Source: a virus | Lineage: Duplodnaviria > Heunggongvirae > Uroviricota > Caudoviricetes | Reading direction: 5' to 3' (one strand) | Length of the DNA stretch: 64,000 nucleotides | Virus record (IMG/VR): IMGVR_UViG_2687453623_000004 | Shown: in pieces, positions 4,022 to 36,983 of the stretch | Layout: each line of letters begins with the position of its first letter | Numbering within the stretch: the first letter of the stretch is position 1 | Translations under genes and position numbers: made by a program | The notes under the pieces: generated by a model | Databases searched by the model: none | Seen by the model: the letters and a program-made list of their open reading frames with translations, nothing else | Told to the model about the DNA's origin: nothing

Positions 4022-5227
4022 TTAAACCCCTTTGACAACGTCAGCGTTGACCTGTGGAACCCCGATTTCAGCGGCCAGATTCATGGCGGCTATTACCAGG
4101 TTACTGACGGCCAGCGGATACAGCAGGCTGACCATATTTTTACGGTGACTTCCCGGATTGCTCAGGCGGGCACGTATGGCATCCACTGCACCGGCGTCCA
4201 TAATGTCCGTCAGCTGTTTACCGGCCCGTTGCAGTTTGAACGTCAGAAATTCTTCAAGGTTATTGTCCAGAGGCAGAAGTTCGACCACCTCACAGCGCTG
4301 AACGACTTCACGGACTTCCATATTGCGTTCAGACAGTTTTGTCGCCAGTTCCGGCTGGCCAATCAGCACGATGGACAGCAGTTTTTTGAAACCGGACTCC
4401 AGCTCAAAAAAGCGTTTGAGGTGTTTCAGTGTCGGAATGGGCAGACTGTGGGCCTCCTCAATCACCAGAACGTGGCTGAACCCCGCCTGGCTGCTGTCTT
4501 TCAGGACGCGATGCAACTGGCGAAAACGGGCGTCCTGACTGCGTCTGATGCTTTCCAGTGGTGCGATGGTACTGATAATGGCTTCGGCAATAGCTGCTGC
4601 CTTCAGGGTTTTCCCTTTCACATCGTTGTCTTCCATAGCGATGATGTATGGCTCGATAACAATTACCGGCGCATTCTCGCGGTTGATACGTTCAGTCAGG
4701 TCGCGGCGCAGCGTGGATTTACCCGCACCGGACTCACCGATGACGGCCATAAACCCACCATGACGGGCTGTCTGGTACAGCGCCTCACGCACGTAGCGAA
4801 TGTCCGGGGTGGTGAACACATCATCAGAACCCTGCATGGCTTCGTCGGCGAACGGGTCACGGAAAAGACCAAACGCTTTTTTGGTTGCTGGAAATAACAC
4901 CTGTTTTTTGAGTAACATATTCTCTTCCTCACTGAGGCTCGTTTTATCTGTGGTACCCGCTGTACGGGGCGTGGCCGCGCCCTGTACAGCATCAAAACTC
5001 TTCGTTGTATCAATCCCCTGACTTTCCAGCCAGGACGCAAGACGCCGGCGCACTTCTCCGGGGCTGGTGCGGGGCCACGCGTTATGATTCACAATCTGGG
5101 CCAGCGTGGCCTCAGAAACATCGACAGCTCTCGCCACCACCGCCTGTGGAATACGGGCCTCTTTCAGTTGCTGCTTCAGTACCAGCATGTTTCCCTCCTC
5201 AGTTGCCGTTAACAATGCTGATAACAC
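4022..5227 (-). CDS. Transposition helper ATPase (Mu B / TniB-like P-loop protein)
   Basis: Walker A GESGAGKST; directly downstream of and overlapping the transposase gene; true start may be an internal Met. Confidence 0.7.
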   Translation of the reverse strand: MLSALLTATEEGNMLVLKQQLKEARIPQAVVARAVDVSEATLAQIVNHNAWPRTSPGEVRRRLASWLESQGIDTTKSFDAVQGAATPRTAGTTDKTSLSEEENMLLKKQVLFPATKKAFGLFRDPFADEAMQGSDDVFTTPDIRYVREALYQTARHGGFMAVIGESGAGKSTLRRDLTERINRENAPVIVIEPYIIAMEDNDVKGKTLKAAAIAEAIISTIAPLESIRRSQDARFRQLHRVLKDSSQAGFSHVLVIEEAHSLPIPTLKHLKRFFELESGFKKLLSIVLIGQPELATKLSERNMEVREVVQRCEVVELLPLDNNLEEFLTFKLQRAGKQLTDIMDAGAVDAIRARLSNPGSHRKNMVSLLYPLAVSNLVIAAMNLAAEIGVPQVNADVVKGV

Positions 5228-22571: not shown

Positions 22572-22822
22572 TGAAAGAATACCGCTATTCCGGCCCGGCC
22601 AGCGGCGTCACGCTGTCGGACGGAACCGAAATCCTGCTCTGGCCGGGGAAGACGGTTTCCCTGCCGGAGGAGCATGACTACGTGAAGGTACTGGTGGCGC
22701 TGAAACATCTGACGCCGGTACCTGAAGAGACTAAACCCGCCGGCACACCGGCTGTGCAGTCACCAAAGCGCAGAAGCAGCAGTGACAGCGAAGTGAAAAC
22801 GGAGGACACCCATGGCAGCTAA
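22568..22822 (+). CDS. Small tail-associated protein (Mu gp38-like)
   Basis: 84-aa ORF preceding the sheath gene. Confidence 0.4.
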   Translation: MMKEYRYSGPASGVTLSDGTEILLWPGKTVSLPEEHDYVKVLVALKHLTPVPEETKPAGTPAVQSPKRRSSSDSEVKTEDTHGS

Positions 22823-24239
22823 CTATCTGCATGGTCCCGAAACCATTGAGGTGGAAAACGGTGCCCGCCCGGTTAAAACGGTGAAATCTGCCGTTATTGG
22901 CCTGATTGGTACCGCCCCGATGGGGGATGTCAATACGCTGGTACAGTGCCTGTCTGAGAAAGACGCAGCGGCATTTGGCAGCCAGTTCACCGGCTTTACC
23001 ATTCCGCAGGCGCTGGATGCGATTTATGACCATGGTGCAGGCACCGTTCTGGTCATTAACGTCCTCGACCCGGCGAAACATAAAACGGCGATCGAGGATG
23101 AGGTGGTTACCTTTGACAAATCGACAGGGCAGGCCAGACTGGCGCATCCGGTTGTCGCTAATGTGGTGGTGAAAAACAGTGAAGGCAGCACCACCCACAC
23201 GGCGAACACGGACTACCGTGTTGATGCGCAGGCGGGTGTGCTCACGAACCTGGGCAAGGCTATTGAGGCCGGTGGCAGCGTGAAGGTGAGCTATGAGTAC
23301 GCGGACCCGTCGAAGGTGACTGCGGCGGACATCATCGGCGGGGTGAACAGCGCCGGAAACCGAACCGGCATGAAGCTGCTTAACGACAGCTTCAACCTGT
23401 ACGGCTATTTCGCCAAAATTCTGATTGCGCCGGTGTTCTGCACCCAGAAGAGTGTCGCAGTTGAGCTTATCGCCATGGCAGAGAAGCTGGGCGCGGTAAC
23501 CTACATTGATGCGCCTGTCGGTACCACCTTTGCACAGGCTCTGGCAGGTCGTGGCCCGGAAGGCACCATCAACTTCAATACCAGCTCCGACCGCGTCCGT
23601 CTGTGCTATCCGCATGTGAAGGTATATGACCCGGTGACAAACACAGAGCGTCTGGAGCCGCTCAGCCAGCGTGCAGCAGGTCTGCGTGCCAGAGTCGATC
23701 TGGACAAGGGCTACTGGTGGTCATCCTCCAATCAGGAGATTCTGGGGATCACCGGCGTGGAGCGCCAGCTGTCCGCGATGATTGATGACCCGCAGAGTGA
23801 GGTGAACCTGCTTAACGAACAGGGGATCACCACGGTATTCAGCAGTTACGGCAGCGGCCTTCGTCTGTGGGGTAACCGGACGGCAGCATGGCCAACGGTC
23901 ACCCATATGCGTAACTTTGAGAACGTTCGCCGCACCGGTGATGTGATCAACGAGTCCATTCGTTATTTCAGCCAGCAGTACATCGACATGCCGATTACTC
24001 AGGCGCTGATTGATGCACTGACGGAGTCGGTCAACGCCTACGGTCGCAAAATGACTGGTGATGGTGCGGTACTGGGCTTCCGTTGCTGGTTTGATCCGGC
24101 CCGCAATCCGGAGACGGAGCTGGCCGCCGGGCACCTGTTGCTGAGCTACAAATATACGCCACCACCGCCGCTGGAGCGACTGACGTTTGAGACTGAGATC
24201 ACCTCGGAATACCTGTTAACCCTGAAAGGGGGCAACTGA
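22812..24239 (+). CDS. Contractile tail sheath protein
   Basis: 475 aa; followed by the tube gene. Confidence 0.75.
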   Translation: MAANYLHGPETIEVENGARPVKTVKSAVIGLIGTAPMGDVNTLVQCLSEKDAAAFGSQFTGFTIPQALDAIYDHGAGTVLVINVLDPAKHKTAIEDEVVTFDKSTGQARLAHPVVANVVVKNSEGSTTHTANTDYRVDAQAGVLTNLGKAIEAGGSVKVSYEYADPSKVTAADIIGGVNSAGNRTGMKLLNDSFNLYGYFAKILIAPVFCTQKSVAVELIAMAEKLGAVTYIDAPVGTTFAQALAGRGPEGTINFNTSSDRVRLCYPHVKVYDPVTNTERLEPLSQRAAGLRARVDLDKGYWWSSSNQEILGITGVERQLSAMIDDPQSEVNLLNEQGITTVFSSYGSGLRLWGNRTAAWPTVTHMRNFENVRRTGDVINESIRYFSQQYIDMPITQALIDALTESVNAYGRKMTGDGAVLGFRCWFDPARNPETELAAGHLLLSYKYTPPPPLERLTFETEITSEYLLTLKGGN

Positions 24240-24760
24240 TGTCAAAGATTGAGATAAACCGCATCACGAATGCCAACATCTATCTGGATGGTACTAACCT
24301 GCTGGGACGGGCTGAGGAAGTTAAACTCCCCGATGTCTCCATGATTATGCAGGAACACAAGGCGCTGGGGATGGTGGGTAAGGTGGAACTCCCGGCTGGT
24401 TTTGACAAACTGGAAGGCGAAATCAAATGGAACAGCTTTTACCGCGATGCGATGCTGTCTGCCGCGAACCCGTACAGGTCGCTGGCACTGCAGTGTCGTT
24501 CCAGCGTCCAGCGCTACAGCTCGCAGGGGCTGATTGACGAAATCCCGCTGGTCACCTTCCTGACGATTATGTTCAAGAAGAACCCGCTGGGGACGTTCAA
24601 ACAGCACGAGAACGCCGAGTTCTCCAGTAGCTTCACCTGCACGTATATCAGACAGGTACTGGATGGTGAAGAGCTGCTGCAACTGGACTATCTGGCCAAC
24701 ATCTTCCGGGTCGGCGGTGTTGATCAACTGACTGACTACCGTATCAATATCGGGGGCTGA
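24239..24760 (+). CDS. Tail tube protein
   Basis: 173 aa immediately after the sheath gene. Confidence 0.7.
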   Translation: MSKIEINRITNANIYLDGTNLLGRAEEVKLPDVSMIMQEHKALGMVGKVELPAGFDKLEGEIKWNSFYRDAMLSAANPYRSLALQCRSSVQRYSSQGLIDEIPLVTFLTIMFKKNPLGTFKQHENAEFSSSFTCTYIRQVLDGEELLQLDYLANIFRVGGVDQLTDYRINIGG

Positions 24761-24762
24761 CG

Positions 24763-25044
24763 GTGAGTGTTGAACTGACGGATAAAGGAGGACGATGTGC
24801 GGCACTGGGCATGTCAAATGGTACGTGGTTTACCCTCCTTGATATTCCGGGGGTGGAAACCCTTTTTAATACCCGTAAAACCAATGACCCGATTGACTGC
24901 ACACGTTCAAAGGCCCGCAAACTGGCGGATTTGATTGAAGCATGGGAGCCTCCCGACCACTGGTTCTCCGGCATCGGCAAATCTGAGGGAAAGACGCTTC
25001 TCATCGCTTTCCTGCGTAACTGCAAGGGGTTTCGCACTTGCTGA
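24763..25044 (+). CDS. Hypothetical protein (GTG start)
   Basis: 93-aa ORF after the tube gene. Confidence 0.3.
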   Translation: MSVELTDKGGRCAALGMSNGTWFTLLDIPGVETLFNTRKTNDPIDCTRSKARKLADLIEAWEPPDHWFSGIGKSEGKTLLIAFLRNCKGFRTC

Positions 25045-25141: not shown

Positions 25142-25477
25142 ATGTCACAGACCCCATCCGATACTTTTAAATTGTCTTATCCCTTCACCACTGCTGCAGG
25201 CACCAGAATTGAGCTGGTTGAACTGAAACGCCTGACGGTAAAAGACCTGAAGCAGGTGCGCAAAATCAGCAAAAACCCGGCAGACTGGGACGAACCGCTG
25301 ATTGCCCGCAGTACTGGTCTTCTCCCGGAGGATCTCGACAATATGGATCTGGCTGATTACCTGCAGTTACAGAAACGATTTCAGCTCATCACGGGGATGG
25401 GTGAGAGCAACCAGGGCGCTGACGCAGGCGCAGGGGCTGCTGGCGAGATGGTTCCGGTTTCAGCCGGGGGAGATTGA
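25142..25477 (+). CDS. Putative tail assembly chaperone
   Basis: 111-aa ORF between tube and tape measure, overlapped by an 85-aa ORF in another frame (25302-25559). Confidence 0.4.
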   Translation: MSQTPSDTFKLSYPFTTAAGTRIELVELKRLTVKDLKQVRKISKNPADWDEPLIARSTGLLPEDLDNMDLADYLQLQKRFQLITGMGESNQGADAGAGAAGEMVPVSAGGD

Positions 25478-25634
25478 TGCCCTCGATACTGACGATCTGG
25501 AGATGTGGCTGGAGCAGGCTGAAGAGCAAATCAAAAGCGAGTACGGCGACAAATCATAGTACAGACAGCCGCCAGTAGCGGCTGTTCTGCGTTATCCCCT
25601 CACGTCTTTTCACCTTCCCCGGAGGTTAACCACT

Positions 25635-28586
25635 ATGTCGGGACAGTTTTCAGTCGGCGTTGTTATCGGCGGGATGATTGGCAGCACATTCCGTTCTGCA
25701 ATGAGCGGTACCCGCCGTGCGCTTGATTCCCTGAGCGATACCTCACGCCGCCTGCAGGAACGTCAGAACGCTTTAACCCGTGCAACAGAACGTTATGGTC
25801 AACTGGGTTCTTCCCGGATGCAGCATCTCAACAGCGAGCTGCTGCGGGTAAGCCGCACCATGGAGCAAATTGAGCGCCAGCAGCGCCGTCTGTCAGCGGC
25901 ATCCGCTACCAGTGATGCGCTGAAAGCTAACCGCATGGCGCTGTATGGTCAGGGGATTGAAGCGTATGGCATGGCACAGACTGTTTATCATACGGTTTCC
26001 CCTGCCGTTCAGCAGTCCATGTCTTTTCAGGACAAAATGATTGATATGTCGATCACCGCAAAATATGACAATAAAACGCGGGATGCACTTGCCGGACAGA
26101 TAAAAGGCTGGGCGCTTAAATACAATCAGTATCAGGATGAGCTGCAGGAGGCGATGGGTTCACTCATCAGCGACAATATTGATAATGTGTCAGATATCGG
26201 TTTTCTGATGCCGGATATTGCCCGCGCGGCAACGGCAACACGCACGTCTGCTCAGGACTGGGCAAAAGTGGCCGCAGTCTGGCAAAACTCCCTGAAAGGC
26301 GCGGCCAGAGATTTTGGTGCCGTTCAGAATATTATGGCTTATGCCGGTGACCAGGGGTCATTTGAAATCCCGGATCAGGTCAAGTGGATGCAGTCCCTGG
26401 CCCCAATGATGGCGGGTATTGCCAGTGGAAAAGAGGCTGTTGCTGAAATCGGGGCCAGTCTCCAGATAGCAAAAATCGGTGCAGGTTCCACCGACGAAGC
26501 AGCCAATAATTTTAAAAACTTTCTTACCAAAATTTTTGCCCGCGATACTCAGAAACAGTTTGCTGATCTGGGTATTGATTTGCAGGGATCTATTGCGAGT
26601 TATAAAGCTGCGGGGATCTCTCCGATTGAAGGGATGTTGAGTGTTATAGAACGTTACCTCAATGCCAAAAGCCCCGAAGCGCTGGCCGGCTTCAAATCAG
26701 CCATGAAAATAAAGAATGATACGGCAAGAGATGAGGCACTTCAGGCTCTGGCGAAAAACTTTGGTCTGGGCGATATGTTCGCGGATATGCAGGTCATGGC
26801 ATTTATCCGCCCGATGCTGGCCAACATGGACAGATATCGAGAGATCCGTGCCGGTGCTCTCAGGGCTGCGGATAACGATTTGCTTGCCAGTGCTTATGAT
26901 CAGCGGCTGAAATCTCCCCTTGAAGCCACTAAAACACTTATGGTCAGCAGTCGCGATCTGGCAATTACGCTGGGCGATCAATTAGCTCCATCTTTTATTT
27001 CTCTGACTCAGGACTTGCTCCCACTCATTCAGGGGACAAAACACTGGGTGGCGACTCACCCGCAATTTGTCAGTGGGGCTTTTAAGCTCATCAGTGCGCT
27101 CCTTGCGATTAAGATAGCGACTGTTGGTCTCAAACTGGGGCTGAATCTCCTTATTTCCCCCTTTGTGAACGTCTGGAAAACTGCTGTTTTACTCCGGACC
27201 AACTGGCATCGACTGACTACCGCACTCGGAGAAGGTGGCAAATTACGCTGGCTTGTCACTGGATTCAGCCGACTGACCAGCGGAGGACTGAAACTCAGCA
27301 AAGTTCTGGCGGGCAGCCTCGTTCGCGGTTTTATGAGCGCTGCACGTGCCGTTCTCTGGATTGGGCGAGCGCTGATGATGAATCCCATCGGTCTCGTTAT
27401 CACCGCTGTCGCGGCAGCAGCTTACCTTATCTACCGCAACTGGGGGGCAGTCAGTGGCTGGTTTAAACAGCGCTGGGCTGACATTCAGGAAGCCTTTAAC
27501 GGCGGTATCGCGGGAACTGGTAAGCTGCTGATTAACTGGTCGCCGGCAGGCCTGCTCTATAAAGCCTTTGCGGCTGCGCTGAAATATTTCGGCGTTACTC
27601 TGCCGGCAAAGTTCACCGACTTCGGTGGCCATCTTATCGACGGTTTGATTAACGGTATCAAAAACAAATGGGGGTCGCTCAAATCCAGTGTAACCGGAAT
27701 GGGTGACAGCATCAGTAGCTGGTTTAAACAATGCTGGGCTGACATTCAGGAAGCCTTTAACGGCGGTATCGCGGGAACTGGTAAGCTGCTGATTAACTGG
27801 TCGCCGGCAGGTCTGCTCTATAAAGCCTTTGCAGCTGCGCTGAAATATCTTGGTGTTGATCTGCCGGCAAAGTTTACCGACTTCGGTGGCCATCTTGTCG
27901 ATGGTCTGATTAACGGTATCAAAAACAAATGGGAGTCGCTCAAATCCAGTGTAACCGGAATGGGCGACAGCATCAGTGGCTGGTTCAGCGAAAAGCTGGG
28001 CATTCATTCGCCGAGCCGCGTGTTTATGGGCTTTGGTGACAATATCGCGCAGGGGGCCGCCATTGGCCTGCAGCGGACCACTCCGCTTGCAGCTCTGGCC
28101 GGGCAGCGAATGGCCAGTGAACTGCTCCCCAGAATGCCCGTGAGCATTCAGGGGCCAGAAATACGGGATAACACTTCAGGTGTTCGCTTCAGTATGCCGT
28201 TGCCCGATATCAATGGGTTTATGTCGTCTGCTAAAAATGCGATCGGAGCCGTAATCAATAGTTTGTCTTCCATGCCCGCTATTCCGCTCTCCACCCGGGC
28301 ATCGATTTTACCAGGGCAACGTCTGGCAAATGAGATGACACCGGATGTTCCCCGTATCCCCTCGCCTGAAATCCTGGCTGCCGGATATTCAGGCCGTGGT
28401 GCAGCTGCAACCGGCGGTGGAACGTCTGGTGGTATCCAGGTCAGCTTTAATCCTCAGTTTTTCCTCAATGGCAGGGAAACCACAGCGCCTGCAGGACTGA
28501 CTGGTGCCCTGAATATGAGTCTGCATGAGCTGGAAAAAATGCTGGAGCGTCTGCTGGCTCAGAAACAACGTAAGGAGTACCGCTGA
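25635..28586 (+). CDS. Tail tape measure protein carrying an internal in-frame tandem duplication
   Basis: 983 aa; helical N-terminal half, hydrophobic segments; 87-aa unit repeated twice. Confidence 0.75.
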   Translation: MSGQFSVGVVIGGMIGSTFRSAMSGTRRALDSLSDTSRRLQERQNALTRATERYGQLGSSRMQHLNSELLRVSRTMEQIERQQRRLSAASATSDALKANRMALYGQGIEAYGMAQTVYHTVSPAVQQSMSFQDKMIDMSITAKYDNKTRDALAGQIKGWALKYNQYQDELQEAMGSLISDNIDNVSDIGFLMPDIARAATATRTSAQDWAKVAAVWQNSLKGAARDFGAVQNIMAYAGDQGSFEIPDQVKWMQSLAPMMAGIASGKEAVAEIGASLQIAKIGAGSTDEAANNFKNFLTKIFARDTQKQFADLGIDLQGSIASYKAAGISPIEGMLSVIERYLNAKSPEALAGFKSAMKIKNDTARDEALQALAKNFGLGDMFADMQVMAFIRPMLANMDRYREIRAGALRAADNDLLASAYDQRLKSPLEATKTLMVSSRDLAITLGDQLAPSFISLTQDLLPLIQGTKHWVATHPQFVSGAFKLISALLAIKIATVGLKLGLNLLISPFVNVWKTAVLLRTNWHRLTTALGEGGKLRWLVTGFSRLTSGGLKLSKVLAGSLVRGFMSAARAVLWIGRALMMNPIGLVITAVAAAAYLIYRNWGAVSGWFKQRWADIQEAFNGGIAGTGKLLINWSPAGLLYKAFAAALKYFGVTLPAKFTDFGGHLIDGLINGIKNKWGSLKSSVTGMGDSISSWFKQCWADIQEAFNGGIAGTGKLLINWSPAGLLYKAFAAALKYLGVDLPAKFTDFGGHLVDGLINGIKNKWESLKSSVTGMGDSISGWFSEKLGIHSPSRVFMGFGDNIAQGAAIGLQRTTPLAALAGQRMASELLPRMPVSIQGPEIRDNTSGVRFSMPLPDINGFMSSAKNAIGAVINSLSSMPAIPLSTRASILPGQRLANEMTPDVPRIPSPEILAAGYSGRGAAATGGGTSGGIQVSFNPQFFLNGRETTAPAGLTGALNMSLHELEKMLERLLAQKQRKEYR
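27446..27967 (+). repeat. Two tandem 261-bp near-identical units inside the tape measure gene
   Basis: Unit boundaries GCTGGTTTAAACAGCGCTGGGC at 27457 and GCTGGTTTAAACAATGCTGGGC at 27718; protein repeat SWFKQ(R/C)WADIQEAFNGGIAGTGKLLINWSPAGLLYKAFAAALKY... Confidence 0.8.
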
Positions 28587-33484: not shown

Positions 33485-34734
33485 TTATGGGAAACCTGAA
33501 TGAAACAGAAAAGTGGGAAGAAAATATCTATCAACTGGAGACATCAGATCCGGTTCTGGGTGGTGCAGACGGGATATCAAATCGAGCCCCCCGGCAACTG
33601 GCAAACAGGACGAAATGGCTGAAGAAGAAAACGGAGGAAGCCGCACAGTCACTGGCTGAACACGTACGTTCCCGTAACCACCCGGACGCGACACTGACAG
33701 CTAAGGGGTTCACCCAACTGAGCAGTGCCACCAACAGCACCTCTGAAACGCTGGCCGCCACACCAAAAGCGGTCAAGGCTGCATACGACCTGGCAGCCGG
33801 CAAGGCGCCTGCCAGCCACACTCACCCGTGGAGTCAGATAACGGGAGTGCCTGCGGCTTCACTGACGGCAAAAGGCACCGTACAACTGAGCAGCGCCACG
33901 GACAGTCAATCAGAAACTGAGGCTGCCACGCCGAAGGCGGTCAAGGCTGCATACGACCTTGCAGCCGGCAAGGCGCCCGTCAGCCACACTCACCCGTGGA
34001 GTCAGATAACGGGAGTGCCTGCTGCCTCGCTGACGGCAAAAGGCACCGTACAATTGAGCAGTGCCATCAACAGCACGTCTGAAATACTGGCCGCCACACC
34101 GAAAGCGGTCAAGGCTGCATACGATCTGGCAAACGGAAAACAACCGGCAGATGCCACGCTCACTGCTCTGGCAGGACTTGCCACTGCAGCAGATCGGTTG
34201 CCTTATTTTACCGGAGCAGACCGCGCAGAGCTGGCAACCCTTACAGCTATTGGTCGCGCTATTATCGCTAAGGGCAGTATAAAAGATGTCCTCAATTACC
34301 TTGGTTTGGGGGAAGGCTCGGCGCTGCCCGTTGGTGTACCTGTTCCGTGGCCCACTGCCACACCGCCAGCAGGCTGGTTAAAGTGCGACGGGCGCGCCTT
34401 TACAAAAGAACAATATCCTGTTCTGGCCAGAGTCTACCCGACCCTCCGTCTTCCCGATTTACGCGGTGAGTTTATCCGTGGATGGGACGACGGGCGAAAA
34501 GTGGATACAGGGCGCGATCTGCTTTCACGGCAGGATGGTACAAGTTTTTCTCATTACGCAGGTAATTTTGACATTGGGTCTGGTCATTCAATCAATAACT
34601 ATGACCAAATCGTTGACAACCAACCTGGATTCTCCCGTTTTTCATTTGCAGGTCCTTCGCGAGGCGATGGGGTTAATTATGTGACCATTCGTCCCCGTAA
34701 CATTGCGTTTAATTACATCGTAAGGGCGGCATAG
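33481..34734 (+). CDS. Tail fibre protein S (constant part plus currently expressed C-terminal cassette Sv1)
   Basis: 417 aa; repeated TAKGxxQLSSAxxSxSE...[16 protein letters not shown] units; C-terminus ...[14 protein letters not shown]. Confidence 0.75.
   Translation: MIMGNLNETEKWEENIYQLETSDPVLGGADGISNRAPRQLANRTKWLKKKTEEAAQSLAEHVRSRNHPDATLTAKGFTQLSSATNSTSETLAATPKAVKAAYDLAAGKAPASHTHPWSQITGVPAASLTAKGTVQLSSATDSQSETEAATPKAVKAAYDLAAGKAPVSHTHPWSQITGVPAASLTAKGTVQLSSAINSTSEILAATPKAVKAAYDLANGKQPADATLTALAGLATAADRLPYFTGADRAELATLTAIGRAIIAKGSIKDVLNYLGLGEGSALPVGVPVPWPTATPPAGWLKCDGRAFTKEQYPVLARVYPTLRLPDLRGEFIRGWDDGRKVDTGRDLLSRQDGTSFSHYAGNFDIGSGHSINNYDQIVDNQPGFSRFSFAGPSRGDGVNYVTIRPRNIAFNYIVRAA
34289..34314 (+). 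promoter_or_regulatory. Putative Gin/Hin-type crossover site A inside S
   Basis: TCCTCAATTACC-TT-GGTTTGGGGGAA resembles hix/gix half-sites (ACC-TT-GGTTT core); begins a ~210-bp segment repeated at 34740 and, inverted, at 36130-36346. Confidence 0.45.
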
Positions 34735-34753
34735 AAACGTTGGTTTGGGGGAA
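34730..34753 (+). promoter_or_regulatory. Putative crossover site B (direct) immediately after the S stop codon
   Basis: CATAGAAACG-TT-GGTTTGGGGGAA. Confidence 0.4.
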
Positions 34754-35206
34754 GGCTCTGCATTGCCTGTTGGTGTACCGGTTCCATGGCCCACCGCCAC
34801 ACCGCCAGCAGGCTGGTTACAGTGCAACGGAGCTACGTTCACCAAAGAACAATATCCTGTTCTGGTCAGAGTCTACCCGACCCTCCGTCTTCCCGATTTG
34901 CGCGGTGAGTTTATCCGTGGATGGGACGGTGGTCGCAAGGTTGATACCGGGCGTGCGCTACTTTCATTTCAGGAAGGGACTATCGTATCCGGTTTTGATG
35001 ATAATGATACCGGAGATATCAGTTCGCTCGGCTCTACACAATACGGATTTGGTGACGCTTTAACCTCTAATCAACTGGGGGTCTTAAATGGCAAAAAGTG
35101 GATATTTGATGCATCCTCTAAAGGTGCACAAAGATATGACTGGTGGGCTTATGTATCAGCTCGCCCCCGCAATATCGCATTTAACTATATCGTGAGGGCG
35201 GCGTGA
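34745..35206 (+). other. Silent alternative tail-fibre C-terminal cassette (Sv2), no upstream constant region in frame
   Basis: Homologous to the S C-terminal region (PVGVPVPWPTATPPAGWL ... [14 protein letters not shown]) but diverged in the middle; lacks an independent start context. Confidence 0.5.
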
Positions 35207-35212
35207 TACCGT

Positions 35213-35827
35213 TCAGCCGGCAAGCGCCAGTGGCGCTTCCGGCCAGCTGATTTCAGGTGCCTTGCTGATATCCAGTGCGTTCAGCTCGTCGATATAATCC
35301 AGCACGGCGTTCAGTTTTGCCGTTTCTTCTGGTTTCAGACTGCGACCAGCACGCAGTTTGAGGTTGATAAGATCGACGGACGCCATCGCCTGTTTCACCC
35401 GTTGCTGGCGTTGCTGTCTGGCAACCTCCAGTTCTGCGGCTCGCTGCCGTTCAGTATCGGTTACCCACGCCTCACCGTTCCAGGTATCCCATGGCGTGGC
35501 TGGCTGTTTTGTGGTGGTGTCCGCCGGGTAATCACCCGGTTGGGTAATCAGAACGGGGTTACCGTTCTCCGTGCTGTATACCGTCTCGCCGCGGTGATCA
35601 GGCACATGCTCCCACCCGTTCAGCGTGGCAGTCCGGCAAACCACGTAACCCGAAATTGCTTCCGGCGGTGCATCGGCGCACGAATGTGCCGGAGTACCCA
35701 CCCCAAGGGCGAGATACTCCACAGAGGATGAGGTGTATTCCCGGGTTTCCTCGTCATAGTGATATACAGTGATATCGCCCGCTACAGTGGCGATACCGTT
35801 TTCATCCAGAACTGCAGTGTTACTCAT
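35213..35827 (-). CDS. Tail fibre assembly protein (U'-like), inverted orientation
   Basis: 204 aa; C-terminus ...ISWPEAPLALAG typical of Tfa family. Confidence 0.6.
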   Translation of the reverse strand: MSNTAVLDENGIATVAGDITVYHYDEETREYTSSSVEYLALGVGTPAHSCADAPPEAISGYVVCRTATLNGWEHVPDHRGETVYSTENGNPVLITQPGDYPADTTTKQPATPWDTWNGEAWVTDTERQRAAELEVARQQRQQRVKQAMASVDLINLKLRAGRSLKPEETAKLNAVLDYIDELNALDISKAPEISWPEAPLALAG

Positions 35828-36309
35828 TAAACTGCCCTCACAATGTAATTAAGTGCAATGCTACGGGGTCTGACAGTGATACCCTTCGCATACCCGCTTC
35901 TGATAGAGGTCAGAATAGTAGCCTGCATACCATTGTCTGACATTGCCACGACAGGATCGCTGAATGTTGTCCCGTCCGGCATTTTAAAGCTGCCCTCACG
36001 AAGGTCTGTAATGGAATCTTCATTGTTGAATCCCATGCCGACTATCCCCGAGGTTCCCGTAGTGTCCTGGTTATAATAATCCAGCATTGCTGTTCTTAAC
36101 AGCGTTGCCCCTTGTGCGGACAGCAACTTACGTCCTGTATCAACTTTGCGCCCGTCGTCCCATCCACGGATAAACTCACCGCGTAAATCGGGAAGACGGA
36201 GGGTCGGGTAGACTCTGGCCAGAACAGGATATTGTTCTTTTGTAAAGGCGCGCCCGTCGCACTTTAACCAGCCTGCTGGCGGTGTGGCGGTGGGCCACGG
36301 AACAGGCAC
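35827..36309 (-). other. Inverted alternative tail-fibre C-terminal cassette (Sv3)
   Basis: Begins PVPWPTATPPAGWLKCDGRAF..., ends ...RPRSIALNYIVRAV; its 5' ~210 bp is almost identical to S at 34301-34512 in inverted orientation. Confidence 0.6.
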
Positions 36310-36320
36310 ACCAACGGGTA

Positions 36321-36346
36321 GCGCCGAGCCTTCTCCTAAACCAACG
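36321..36346 (-). promoter_or_regulatory. Putative crossover site C (inverted)
   Basis: Reverse complement GATAAACG-TT-GGTTTAGGAGAA. Confidence 0.4.
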
Positions 36347-36407: not shown

Positions 36408-36983
36408 TTAATGCTGATTGGCTACATACGTGTGTCAACAAATGACCAAAACACAGATTTGCAACGCAATGCATTAATGTGCGCAGGATGTGAACAGATT
36501 TTTGAGGACAAAATGAGCGGAACCAAGTCGGAACGACCAGGCCTGAAACGCGCTTTAAAGTGCCTTAAAAGAGGGGATACATTGGTGGTCTGGAAGCTGG
36601 ATCGGTTGGGTAGAAGAATGAAACACCTCATTGCTCTCACAGAAGAGCTACGCGCAAAAGGTGTCAATTTTCGCAGTCTGACGGATTCAATCGATACCAG
36701 CACTCCGATGGGAAGGTTCTTTTTTCATATGATGGGTGCACTGGCAGAAATGGAGCGTGAACTGATAGTTGAGCGCACGCTGGCTGGACTGGCTGCTGCG
36801 CGAGCACAAGGAAGAGTTGGAGGACGTCGCCCGAAACTGACGAAGGAGCAGCATGAGCAGATCGCAAGATTGCTCCAGAAAGGGTATGACAGAAAGCGGC
36901 TGGCAATTATCTATGATATTGGACTGTCAACGATCTACCGCTATCACCCTGTTGGGACTGTCATAACGCAACCTGAAATGTAA
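36408..36983 (+). CDS. gin: Serine DNA invertase (Gin/Hin/Pin family)
   Basis: MLIGYIRVSTNDQNTDLQ ... catalytic Ser motif and C-terminal HTH; start at internal Met of the track ORF. Confidence 0.85.
   Translation, partial: LMLIGYIRVSTNDQNTDLQRNALMCAGCEQIFEDKMSGTKSERPGLKRALKCLKRGDTLVVWKLDRLGRRMKHLIALTEELRAKGVNFRSLTDSIDTSTPMGRFFFHMMGALAEMERELIVERTLAGLAAARAQGRVGGRRPKLTKEQHEQIARLLQKGYDRKRLAIIYDIGLSTIYRYHPVGTVITQPEM

Follow-up and report, generated by a model that had tools for sequence, protein, structure and literature searches.

A copy-variable 87-residue tandem repeat in the tape measure gene of the Mu-like Escherichia coli prophage Phi2

Introduction

What does it mean for a phage when the gene for its tape measure protein (TMP) carries the same 87 codons twice in succession? 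The question is raised by a 64,000-nucleotide (nt) stretch of DNA from a tailed virus (IMG/VR record IMGVR_UViG_2687453623_000004), the whole of which we call the window. A preliminary description of the window had pointed to an in-frame tandem duplication within the tape measure gene, had taken it as the mark of a recent recombination event, and had predicted a tail longer than that of relatives carrying a single unit. Over 28.9 kb the window agrees at 99.96% identity with the genome of strain EC958 of the pandemic Escherichia coli sequence type 131 (ST131), in which the element is a Mu/BcepMu-like prophage adjoining aroA. This prophage was named Phi2 by Forde et al. (2014; PMC4134206), who also described its inversion sites; in the literature on the Mu-like prophages of EC958 we found no paper describing this repeat in the Phi2 TMP.

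Our answer, to which we assign a probability of roughly 0.75, is that the array represents the two-copy state of a copy-variable 87-residue module in the ruler part of the TMP of this contractile-tailed, Mu-like prophage.

Results

Tandem Repeats Finder (TRF) detected a single array between positions 25000 and 31000 of the window, spanning 27451–27985 with a period of 261 nt, 2.0 copies, 93% matches, no indels and a score of 958. A base-by-base map of matches at an offset of 261 nt gave the same limits, with the first matching position at 27451 and the last at 27724 (27985 once the offset is added). The period equals 87 codons, and the array lies in frame inside the open reading frame (ORF) of the TMP (25635–28586), which stays open over 983 amino acids (aa). 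Set in codon register, the two units span 27450–27710 and 27711–27971. The TRF array, the offset map and the ORF thus confirm the tandem, in-frame duplication of 261 bp, or 87 aa, that had been placed inside the tape measure gene; the interval originally given for it, 27446–27967, marks the same array but is about 5 nt out of phase. The two units match in register at 244 of 261 positions, which excludes chance, and pairwise alignment showed differences at 17 nt (93.5% identity) and at 7 of the 87 aa. The units are therefore near-identical, as had been stated, although the wording that they differ 'at only a few positions' understates their divergence. Between the units of the window, synonymous divergence (dS) was 0.167 and nonsynonymous divergence (dN) 0.041, a ratio of 0.24 (Nei–Gojobori method); four further two-unit alleles gave comparable values. 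Both units are under purifying selection. Their longest shared stretch, an uninterrupted 79 nt (Table 1), is a likely substrate for crossovers between them.

The gene that harbors the array matched both PF10145 (PhageMin_Tail; 74.6 bits against a gathering cut-off of 33.2, aa 159–340) and TIGR01760 (NCBIfam tape_meas_TP901; 59.9 bits against a cut-off of 28.8, aa 119–493), and it is annotated as 'phage tail tape measure protein' in EC958 and as 'Mup42' in phage PhiKM. Its neighborhood is that expected of a TMP gene, with genes for the sheath, tube and tail chaperone upstream and gpU/X/D-like genes downstream, as judged from the ORFs of the window and the annotations of PhiKM and EC958. In a Kyte–Doolittle scan, 19-residue windows scoring above 1.6 began at aa 478–490 and at aa 579–582, marking two hydrophobic segments. 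The array (aa 606–779) falls outside the conserved N-terminal TMP domain, between the second of these segments and an IHSPSR motif in which, across a family alignment of 25 sequences (alignment A2), S, P and S were invariant and I and R nearly so.

If the array were peculiar to this phage, its relatives would carry one unit; if it were fixed, they would all carry two. We found neither. A single unit was present in the complete genomes of E30 (TMP of 896 aa), IAL7250 (825 aa) and JNEC-KY180 (821 aa), and also in phage KP12, in Phi06_2974 B and in a 40.5-kb circular element of strain JCH8249. Two units were found in MS1494, EE72d, FORC_031 and HN68 as well as in the window, and three in ZH063, SCU-101, AVS0973 and EC32, with the three-unit ORF intact at 1070 aa in ZH063, SCU-101 and AVS0973, the three that were checked. 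A large protein collection likewise contained discrete TMP classes of 896, 983 and 1070 aa. Both the complete genomes and the protein collection therefore bear out the supposition that single-unit relatives exist, and orthologues do not uniformly carry both units. The sheath protein (WP_000729834.1) and the tube protein (WP_162832341.1) were identical in E30, EC958, ZH063, SCU-101 and AVS0973, which between them carry one, two or three units.

We also searched for the TMP gene in 5426 genomes, of which 635 had a match, with 370 records at 99% or more. Alignment pieces were joined across the repeat, so coverage alone does not separate the copy classes among the 635; the frequencies of the classes rest instead on 60 evenly spaced records of the 635, and the three-unit state was confirmed in the four of them that were checked directly. 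In the sample, 42 of the 60 records had the two-unit pattern, 11 a three-unit-like pattern and about 6 the one-unit pattern. Two units is the commonest state and no peculiarity of this phage.

Several observations made alongside this survey deserve mention. Two variants of this TMP from other isolates were each seen in a single contig and are either real or assembly errors: in P0006 (1084 aa), 101 aa are duplicated, between different end points (EGGKLRW...GTGKLL), and in P0053 (995 aa), 12 aa (GDSISSWFKQCW) are duplicated where the units join. The JCH8249 element (NZ_CP132021.1, a circular record of 40,540 bp labeled 'plasmid unnamed') carries the tail module of a related phage, with a single-unit, 821-aa TMP; instead of a conventional plasmid, it may represent a phage genome in circular form or a phage-plasmid. 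Finally, the three-unit allele of ZH063 (~1.03 Mb) and the two-unit Phi2 allele of EC958 (~1.01 Mb) lie at much the same chromosomal position; the sheath and tube proteins do not differ between them, and the two may be the same prophage insertion with different copy numbers in different lineages.

Looking beyond close relatives, we compared a one-unit query with 1.84 billion representative proteins and obtained 552 clusters at E ≤1e-3, 319 of them at ≤1e-10. The full-length proteins among the best 150 comprised 56 with one copy of the module, 23 with two, 8 with three and 3 with four. In other lineages the portion of the module that is repeated is a different one, the period being 42–44, 49–50, 76 or 113 aa, and this variety of periods and copy numbers marks the region after the hydrophobic segment as a recurrent site of length change in the TMP family. 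The 42–50-aa periods of distant relatives raised the idea that the 87-aa unit itself consists of two sub-repeats of ~43 aa; its halves were not significantly similar (hhalign probability 2.3%, P 0.02), and we rejected it.

A profile built from the hydrophobic segment, the unit and the IHSPSR region matched four chains of solved structures: 9m8o_M (Gp14; E = 5e-18), 6v8i_CF (80alpha gp57; 3e-13), 8kea_G (1e-5) and 9d93_Na (0.025). These chains are distant sequence relatives, none with an 87-aa tandem arrangement, although Gp14 was matched in three stretches and so likewise repeats part of the module. Four of the five profile-matched PDB entries hold three chains of TMP sequence, and the 80alpha sequence is represented by six chains in two entries, which is no more than a hint of the mostly helical rod, trimeric in the tube lumen, that is expected of a TMP.

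For other phages it is established that TMP length sets tail length (the sources on TP901-1 also cite lambda gpH and T4 gp29). In TP901-1, removal of 347 aa from the TMP shortened the tail from 118 to 65 nm (0.153 nm per residue), and tail length changed by 30% when 29% of the TMP was inserted or deleted. By analogy, a longer tail with each extra unit, as had been predicted for the window, is a reasonable expectation. The Phi2 TMP would set the number of tube and sheath rings that polymerize; each unit, at ~0.15 nm per residue for 87 aa, would add ~13 nm; and the 896-, 983- and 1070-aa alleles would specify three discrete tail lengths built from identical sheath and tube proteins. In the extended state the discs of a contractile tail rise by about 4 nm, so that ~13 nm would amount to about three extra rings of tube and sheath.

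The main rival to this reading accepts that the module varies in copy number and denies that it is a ruler: the module would instead be a folded part of the baseplate or tip, or of a trans-envelope channel, such that additional copies alter infection and leave tail length as it is. The position of the array, directly after a hydrophobic segment and before the conserved IHSPSR region, is compatible with such a role, as is the alignment of the second half of the unit and the IHSPSR region with the C-terminal, baseplate-proximal part of 80alpha gp57 (the 6v8i match above). Nor did modeling yield a confident extended helix, the single-sequence AlphaFold2 model of aa 560–830 being mostly helical and of low confidence (mean predicted local distance difference test score, pLDDT, 40.8). 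We nevertheless consider this alternative unlikely, because deletions in the repeat region and in the hydrophobic region of the TP901-1 TMP both shortened the tail proportionally, and because the median length of the full-length proteins among the best 150 rises from 868 aa with one copy to 929 aa with two and 998 aa with three, as if the copies were added to a rod, although the four-copy proteins (median 958 aa, n=3) break this trend. The TMP of mycobacteriophage TM4, when it lacks an embedded motif, is also reported to give a shorter tail, which counts against a role other than that of a ruler.

When did the second unit arise? Comparison of units across alleles resolved two types, with 0–9 nt differences within type A (first units) or type B (last units), 13–22 between the types, and 26–36 between either and the single units of outgroups. 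The first unit of the window differed by 4–9 nt from its counterparts in eight other alleles, but by 13–17 nt from units of type B, and its second unit differed by 1–6 nt from the last units of the same number of alleles. Because differences within a type are smaller than those between types across alleles, the units are orthologous by position. In the sequence flanking the array, dS to the window was at most 0.10 among ingroup alleles and 0.29 to IAL7250 (Nei–Gojobori). The inter-unit dS of 0.167 exceeds the former, which dates the duplication before the diversification of the E. coli alleles of 896, 983 and 1070 aa, and is below the latter, which dates it after the split from the lineage with TMPs of 821–825 aa. 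The duplication is thus old, and the claim that it marks a recent recombination event did not hold.

A recent, phage-specific duplication of a single ancestral unit, which would have left the tail of this phage longer than those of otherwise single-unit relatives, is accordingly a highly improbable account of the array. It draws on the 93.5% identity and direct adjacency of the units and on the existence of one-unit alleles that match the window exactly or almost exactly in their flanks (allele P0103, 896 aa; three complete genomes). Types A and B, however, occupy the same positions in the eight other alleles even where the upstream flanks differ by up to 4%, the divergence between units exceeds that of every allele-to-allele flank comparison in the ingroup, and two units is the prevailing state in the evenly spaced sample. 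The one-unit alleles themselves also speak against it: those nearly identical to the window carry A/B chimeric units, and hence derive from a two-unit state and are not ancestral.

The unit of E30, for example, consists of A(1–102) joined to B(123–261). P0103, derived from ST131, has flanks identical to those of the window and a crossover within the 79-nt identical stretch, and a synthetic chimera joined within that stretch was recovered at 100%, in one alignment piece, in TUM14759, AVS0947 and IPCEC48. Chimeras were equally a feature of expansion, the middle unit being B(1–68)+A(76–261) in AVS0973 and EC32 and B(1–7)+A(21–261) in ZH063 and SCU-101. Contraction and expansion products together displayed four different breakpoints in DNA, along with many mosaic haplotypes at the protein level. 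Chimeric units with differing breakpoints have the signature of repeated unequal crossing-over.

The borders of the array suggest how the first duplication came about. In outgroup TMPs, short direct repeats that encode [VI]S[SGD]WF stand at either border of the single unit. The outer motifs of the window array both read TCAGTGGCTGGTT, in 13-nt copies at 27451 and 27973, and the junction between its units, ATCAGT followed by AGCTGGTT, is a hybrid that combines the downstream motif with the upstream one. The array has the form of a duplication at short repeats, being head-to-tail with no spacer (no indels in the TRF alignment) and having short homology at its outer borders. The hybrid junction and the flanking short repeats are what one would expect if crossover or slippage within the short repeat gave rise to the array. 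On our reading, the closest outgroup lineages carry one copy between short direct repeats, a crossover inside the short repeat produced a single tandem duplication, and the copies then diverged under purifying selection into the first-unit type A and the last-unit type B. Repeated unequal homologous crossing-over has since generated both the one-unit alleles (A/B chimeras) and the three-unit alleles (A, B/A chimera, B).

The same TMPs differ by a second, older length change downstream of the array, where the gene continues for 612 nt in the window and, in the outgroups, for 399 nt. The alleles of 896, 983 and 1070 aa share a 71-aa segment that the outgroup TMPs of 821–825 aa lack; both of its edges carry a GQR[ML]A..E..P..P.I..PEI motif, and it may stem from an older duplication that has since diverged or from an insertion that took place at a short repeat. 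When the C-terminal part of the TMP was compared with itself, as DNA and as protein, no repeat was detected behind this indel, and blastp of the TMP against itself, aimed at further weak repeats, gave nothing useful.

That an assembler doubled a single unit deserves next to no credence: repeats of this size do trouble assemblers, and databases show a sequencing gap and miscalled genes at this one (see below), but the 17 differences between the units allow reads to be placed uniquely on each, both units bear the marks of purifying selection, and the gene aligns along all of its 2952 nt, in a single piece and at 100% identity, with all 60 of the best-listed complete E. coli genomes, which come from many laboratories, and likewise with 29 further records of the evenly spaced sample, the total of records at 99% or more being 370. 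The array is therefore real in assembly terms.

The repeat has nonetheless left its trace in public records. In the phage PhiKM record (PQ738613), a 100-N sequencing gap lies exactly within the 261-nt repeat (at ~4915–5014 of the retrieved locus), and the TMP is annotated as two coding sequences. The Prokaryotic Genome Annotation Pipeline (PGAP) of RefSeq calls three-unit TMP genes 'incomplete / partial in the middle of a contig' pseudogenes, and the gene is split in two in some records; apparently the extra unit breaks a gene call that is based on protein alignment. The one-unit allele P0103 was present in 435 contigs of the protein collection, which is of mixed sources, and in only three complete genomes. 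For users of these databases, intact three-unit TMP genes are thus labeled as partial or as pseudogenes, a phage record is broken at the repeat, and one-unit 'alleles' from short reads may be collapsed.

Beyond the tape measure gene, the annotation of EC958 supports the assignment of the prophage to the Mu/BcepMu-like group, with a DDE transposase, Mu-type head genes (a DUF935 portal and a virion morphogenesis protein), a P2-like contractile tail and an invertible tail-fiber segment. Phage PhiKM is classified as a Bcepmuvirus, and its TMP gene is 99.3% identical to that of the window; the existence of this phage record suggests that the element forms virions. A tail-fiber segment of ~2.05 kb (window positions 34298–36344) is inverted relative to EC958 (99.95% identity in reverse orientation) and adjoins a recombinase (invertase) gene at ~36411–36983. 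Phi2 has an invertible host-range switch of 2067 bp (Forde et al., 2014; PMC4134206), and we read the inverted segment of the window as this known switch in the opposite orientation. Upstream of the TMP gene, two ORFs in different frames overlap (25142–25477 and 25302–25559); in relatives the same pair is annotated as 'phage tail assembly protein' and 'GpE family phage tail protein'. The arrangement is that expected of a tail chaperone pair produced by programmed −1 frameshifting, for which these ORFs are candidates.

Table 1. Locations of the features discussed, in window coordinates unless a retrieved locus is named.
Feature	Position	Strand	Basis
Tail sheath gene; protein WP_000729834.1 identical in one-, two- and three-unit prophages	22812..24239	+	ORF; protein identity
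Tail tube gene; protein WP_162832341.1 identical in one-, two- and three-unit prophages	24239..24760	+	ORF; protein identity
TMP gene, 983 aa, 2952 nt, of the Mu/BcepMu-like prophage EC958 Phi2	25635..28586	+	ORF, PF10145, TIGR01760, annotations
Second hydrophobic segment of the TMP, aa about 579–600, directly upstream of the array	27369..27434	+	Kyte–Doolittle scan
Repeat unit 1 (type A), TMP aa 606–692	27450..27710	+	TRF, pairwise alignment
Left copy of the 13-nt direct repeat TCAGTGGCTGGTT, encoding SGWF, at the array start	27451..27463	+	Read from sequence
Longest identical run between units, 79 nt, unit positions 23–101, copy in unit 1	27472..27550	+	Identical-run comparison
Repeat unit 2 (type B), TMP aa 693–779	27711..27971	+	TRF, pairwise alignment
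Partner of the 79-nt identical run, in unit 2	27733..27811	+	Identical-run comparison
Partial third copy, 14 nt, directly after unit 2; right copy of the short direct repeat (ATCAGTGGCTGGTT)	27972..27985	+	TRF array end, offset-261 map
Conserved IHSPSR motif just downstream of the array	28002..28019	+	25-sequence family alignment A2
71-aa TMP segment (aa about 823–893) absent from the 821–825-aa outgroup TMPs	about 28101..28313	+	C-terminal protein alignment
Three-unit TMP genes miscalled by PGAP	retrieved loci L003, L004 and L007, 2501–5713; retrieved locus L012, 1201–4413		RefSeq annotation

Discussion

How far the main reading of the array can be pressed depends on several points that weigh against it. 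The 13-nm step is an extrapolation by analogy, mostly from siphophage data. The low pLDDT of the model leaves an extended helical conformation of the unit not established, and the four-copy proteins of the wider family fall off the trend in length. The unit is rich in glycine and lies just after a hydrophobic segment, and could contribute to the part of the TMP that is ejected or inserted into the membrane, either besides acting as a ruler or instead of it. The dating of the duplication is blurred by gene conversion between the units and is imprecise, dS having been estimated from ~60 synonymous sites. Moreover, some of the one-unit chimeric alleles could be collapses of the de Bruijn graph in short-read or hybrid assemblies; the join in P0103, inside the stretch that the two units share, is exactly the product expected of such a collapse.

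Set beside lambda gpH, the TP901-1 TMP and T4 gp29, the Phi2 TMP has the same family signatures (PF10145 and TIGR01760) and the same position among the tail genes, and here too an internal change of length is in frame and leaves the ORF intact. Unlike the constructs made in lambda, TP901-1 and T4, the alleles described here are natural ones carried by prophages, they belong to a contractile tail of the P2/Mu type, and the length of that tail is predicted from the genes alone.

Natural tandem repeats of variable copy number have been described before in TMPs, as 11- and 18-residue repeats with a periodic spacing of aromatic residues in TP901-1 and phage p2 (Belcaid, Bergeron and Poisson, 2011; PMC3271669). 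The Phi2 array resembles these repeats in lying downstream of hydrophobic segments, in varying in copy number among relatives (one, two or three units in close relatives and one to four across the family), and in having a history that can be reconstructed from its units. It differs from them in the length of its unit, 87 aa rather than 11 or 18, and in the irregular spacing of its aromatic residues, which does not follow the 11/18-residue Trp/Phe spacing. Myovirus TMPs were found to be mostly without tandem repeats in a 2026 survey, and a clean repeat in the TMP of a contractile tail is to that extent somewhat less usual. The array reveals no new mechanism: TMP repeats with gain and loss of units are already known, and this 87-aa repeat is an additional one.

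A further likeness is to the repeat-containing genes for surface proteins of bacteria, in which units also stand head to tail, crossovers also leave chimeric units, and gains and losses have also occurred several times independently. The Phi2 units, in contrast to those of surface proteins, are long (261 nt) and 6.5% diverged, and for this reason expansion and contraction are probably infrequent; nothing points to programmed or high-frequency switching at the repeat.

These considerations bear on what the array may mean for the phage. The one-, two- and three-unit series might constitute a maintained polymorphism in tail length, with the repeat acting as a slow 'contingency' locus that gives three tail lengths within one Mu-like lineage of E. 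coli. We regard this as a long shot. If it were true, a possible advantage would be the matching of tail length to the thickness of the capsule or O-antigen layer while the sheath, tube and baseplate proteins remain unchanged. Independently of any such advantage, the natural series of alleles, encoding TMPs of 896, 983 and 1070 aa, offers a ready-made way of testing the ruler model on a tail that is contractile and of the Mu/P2 type.

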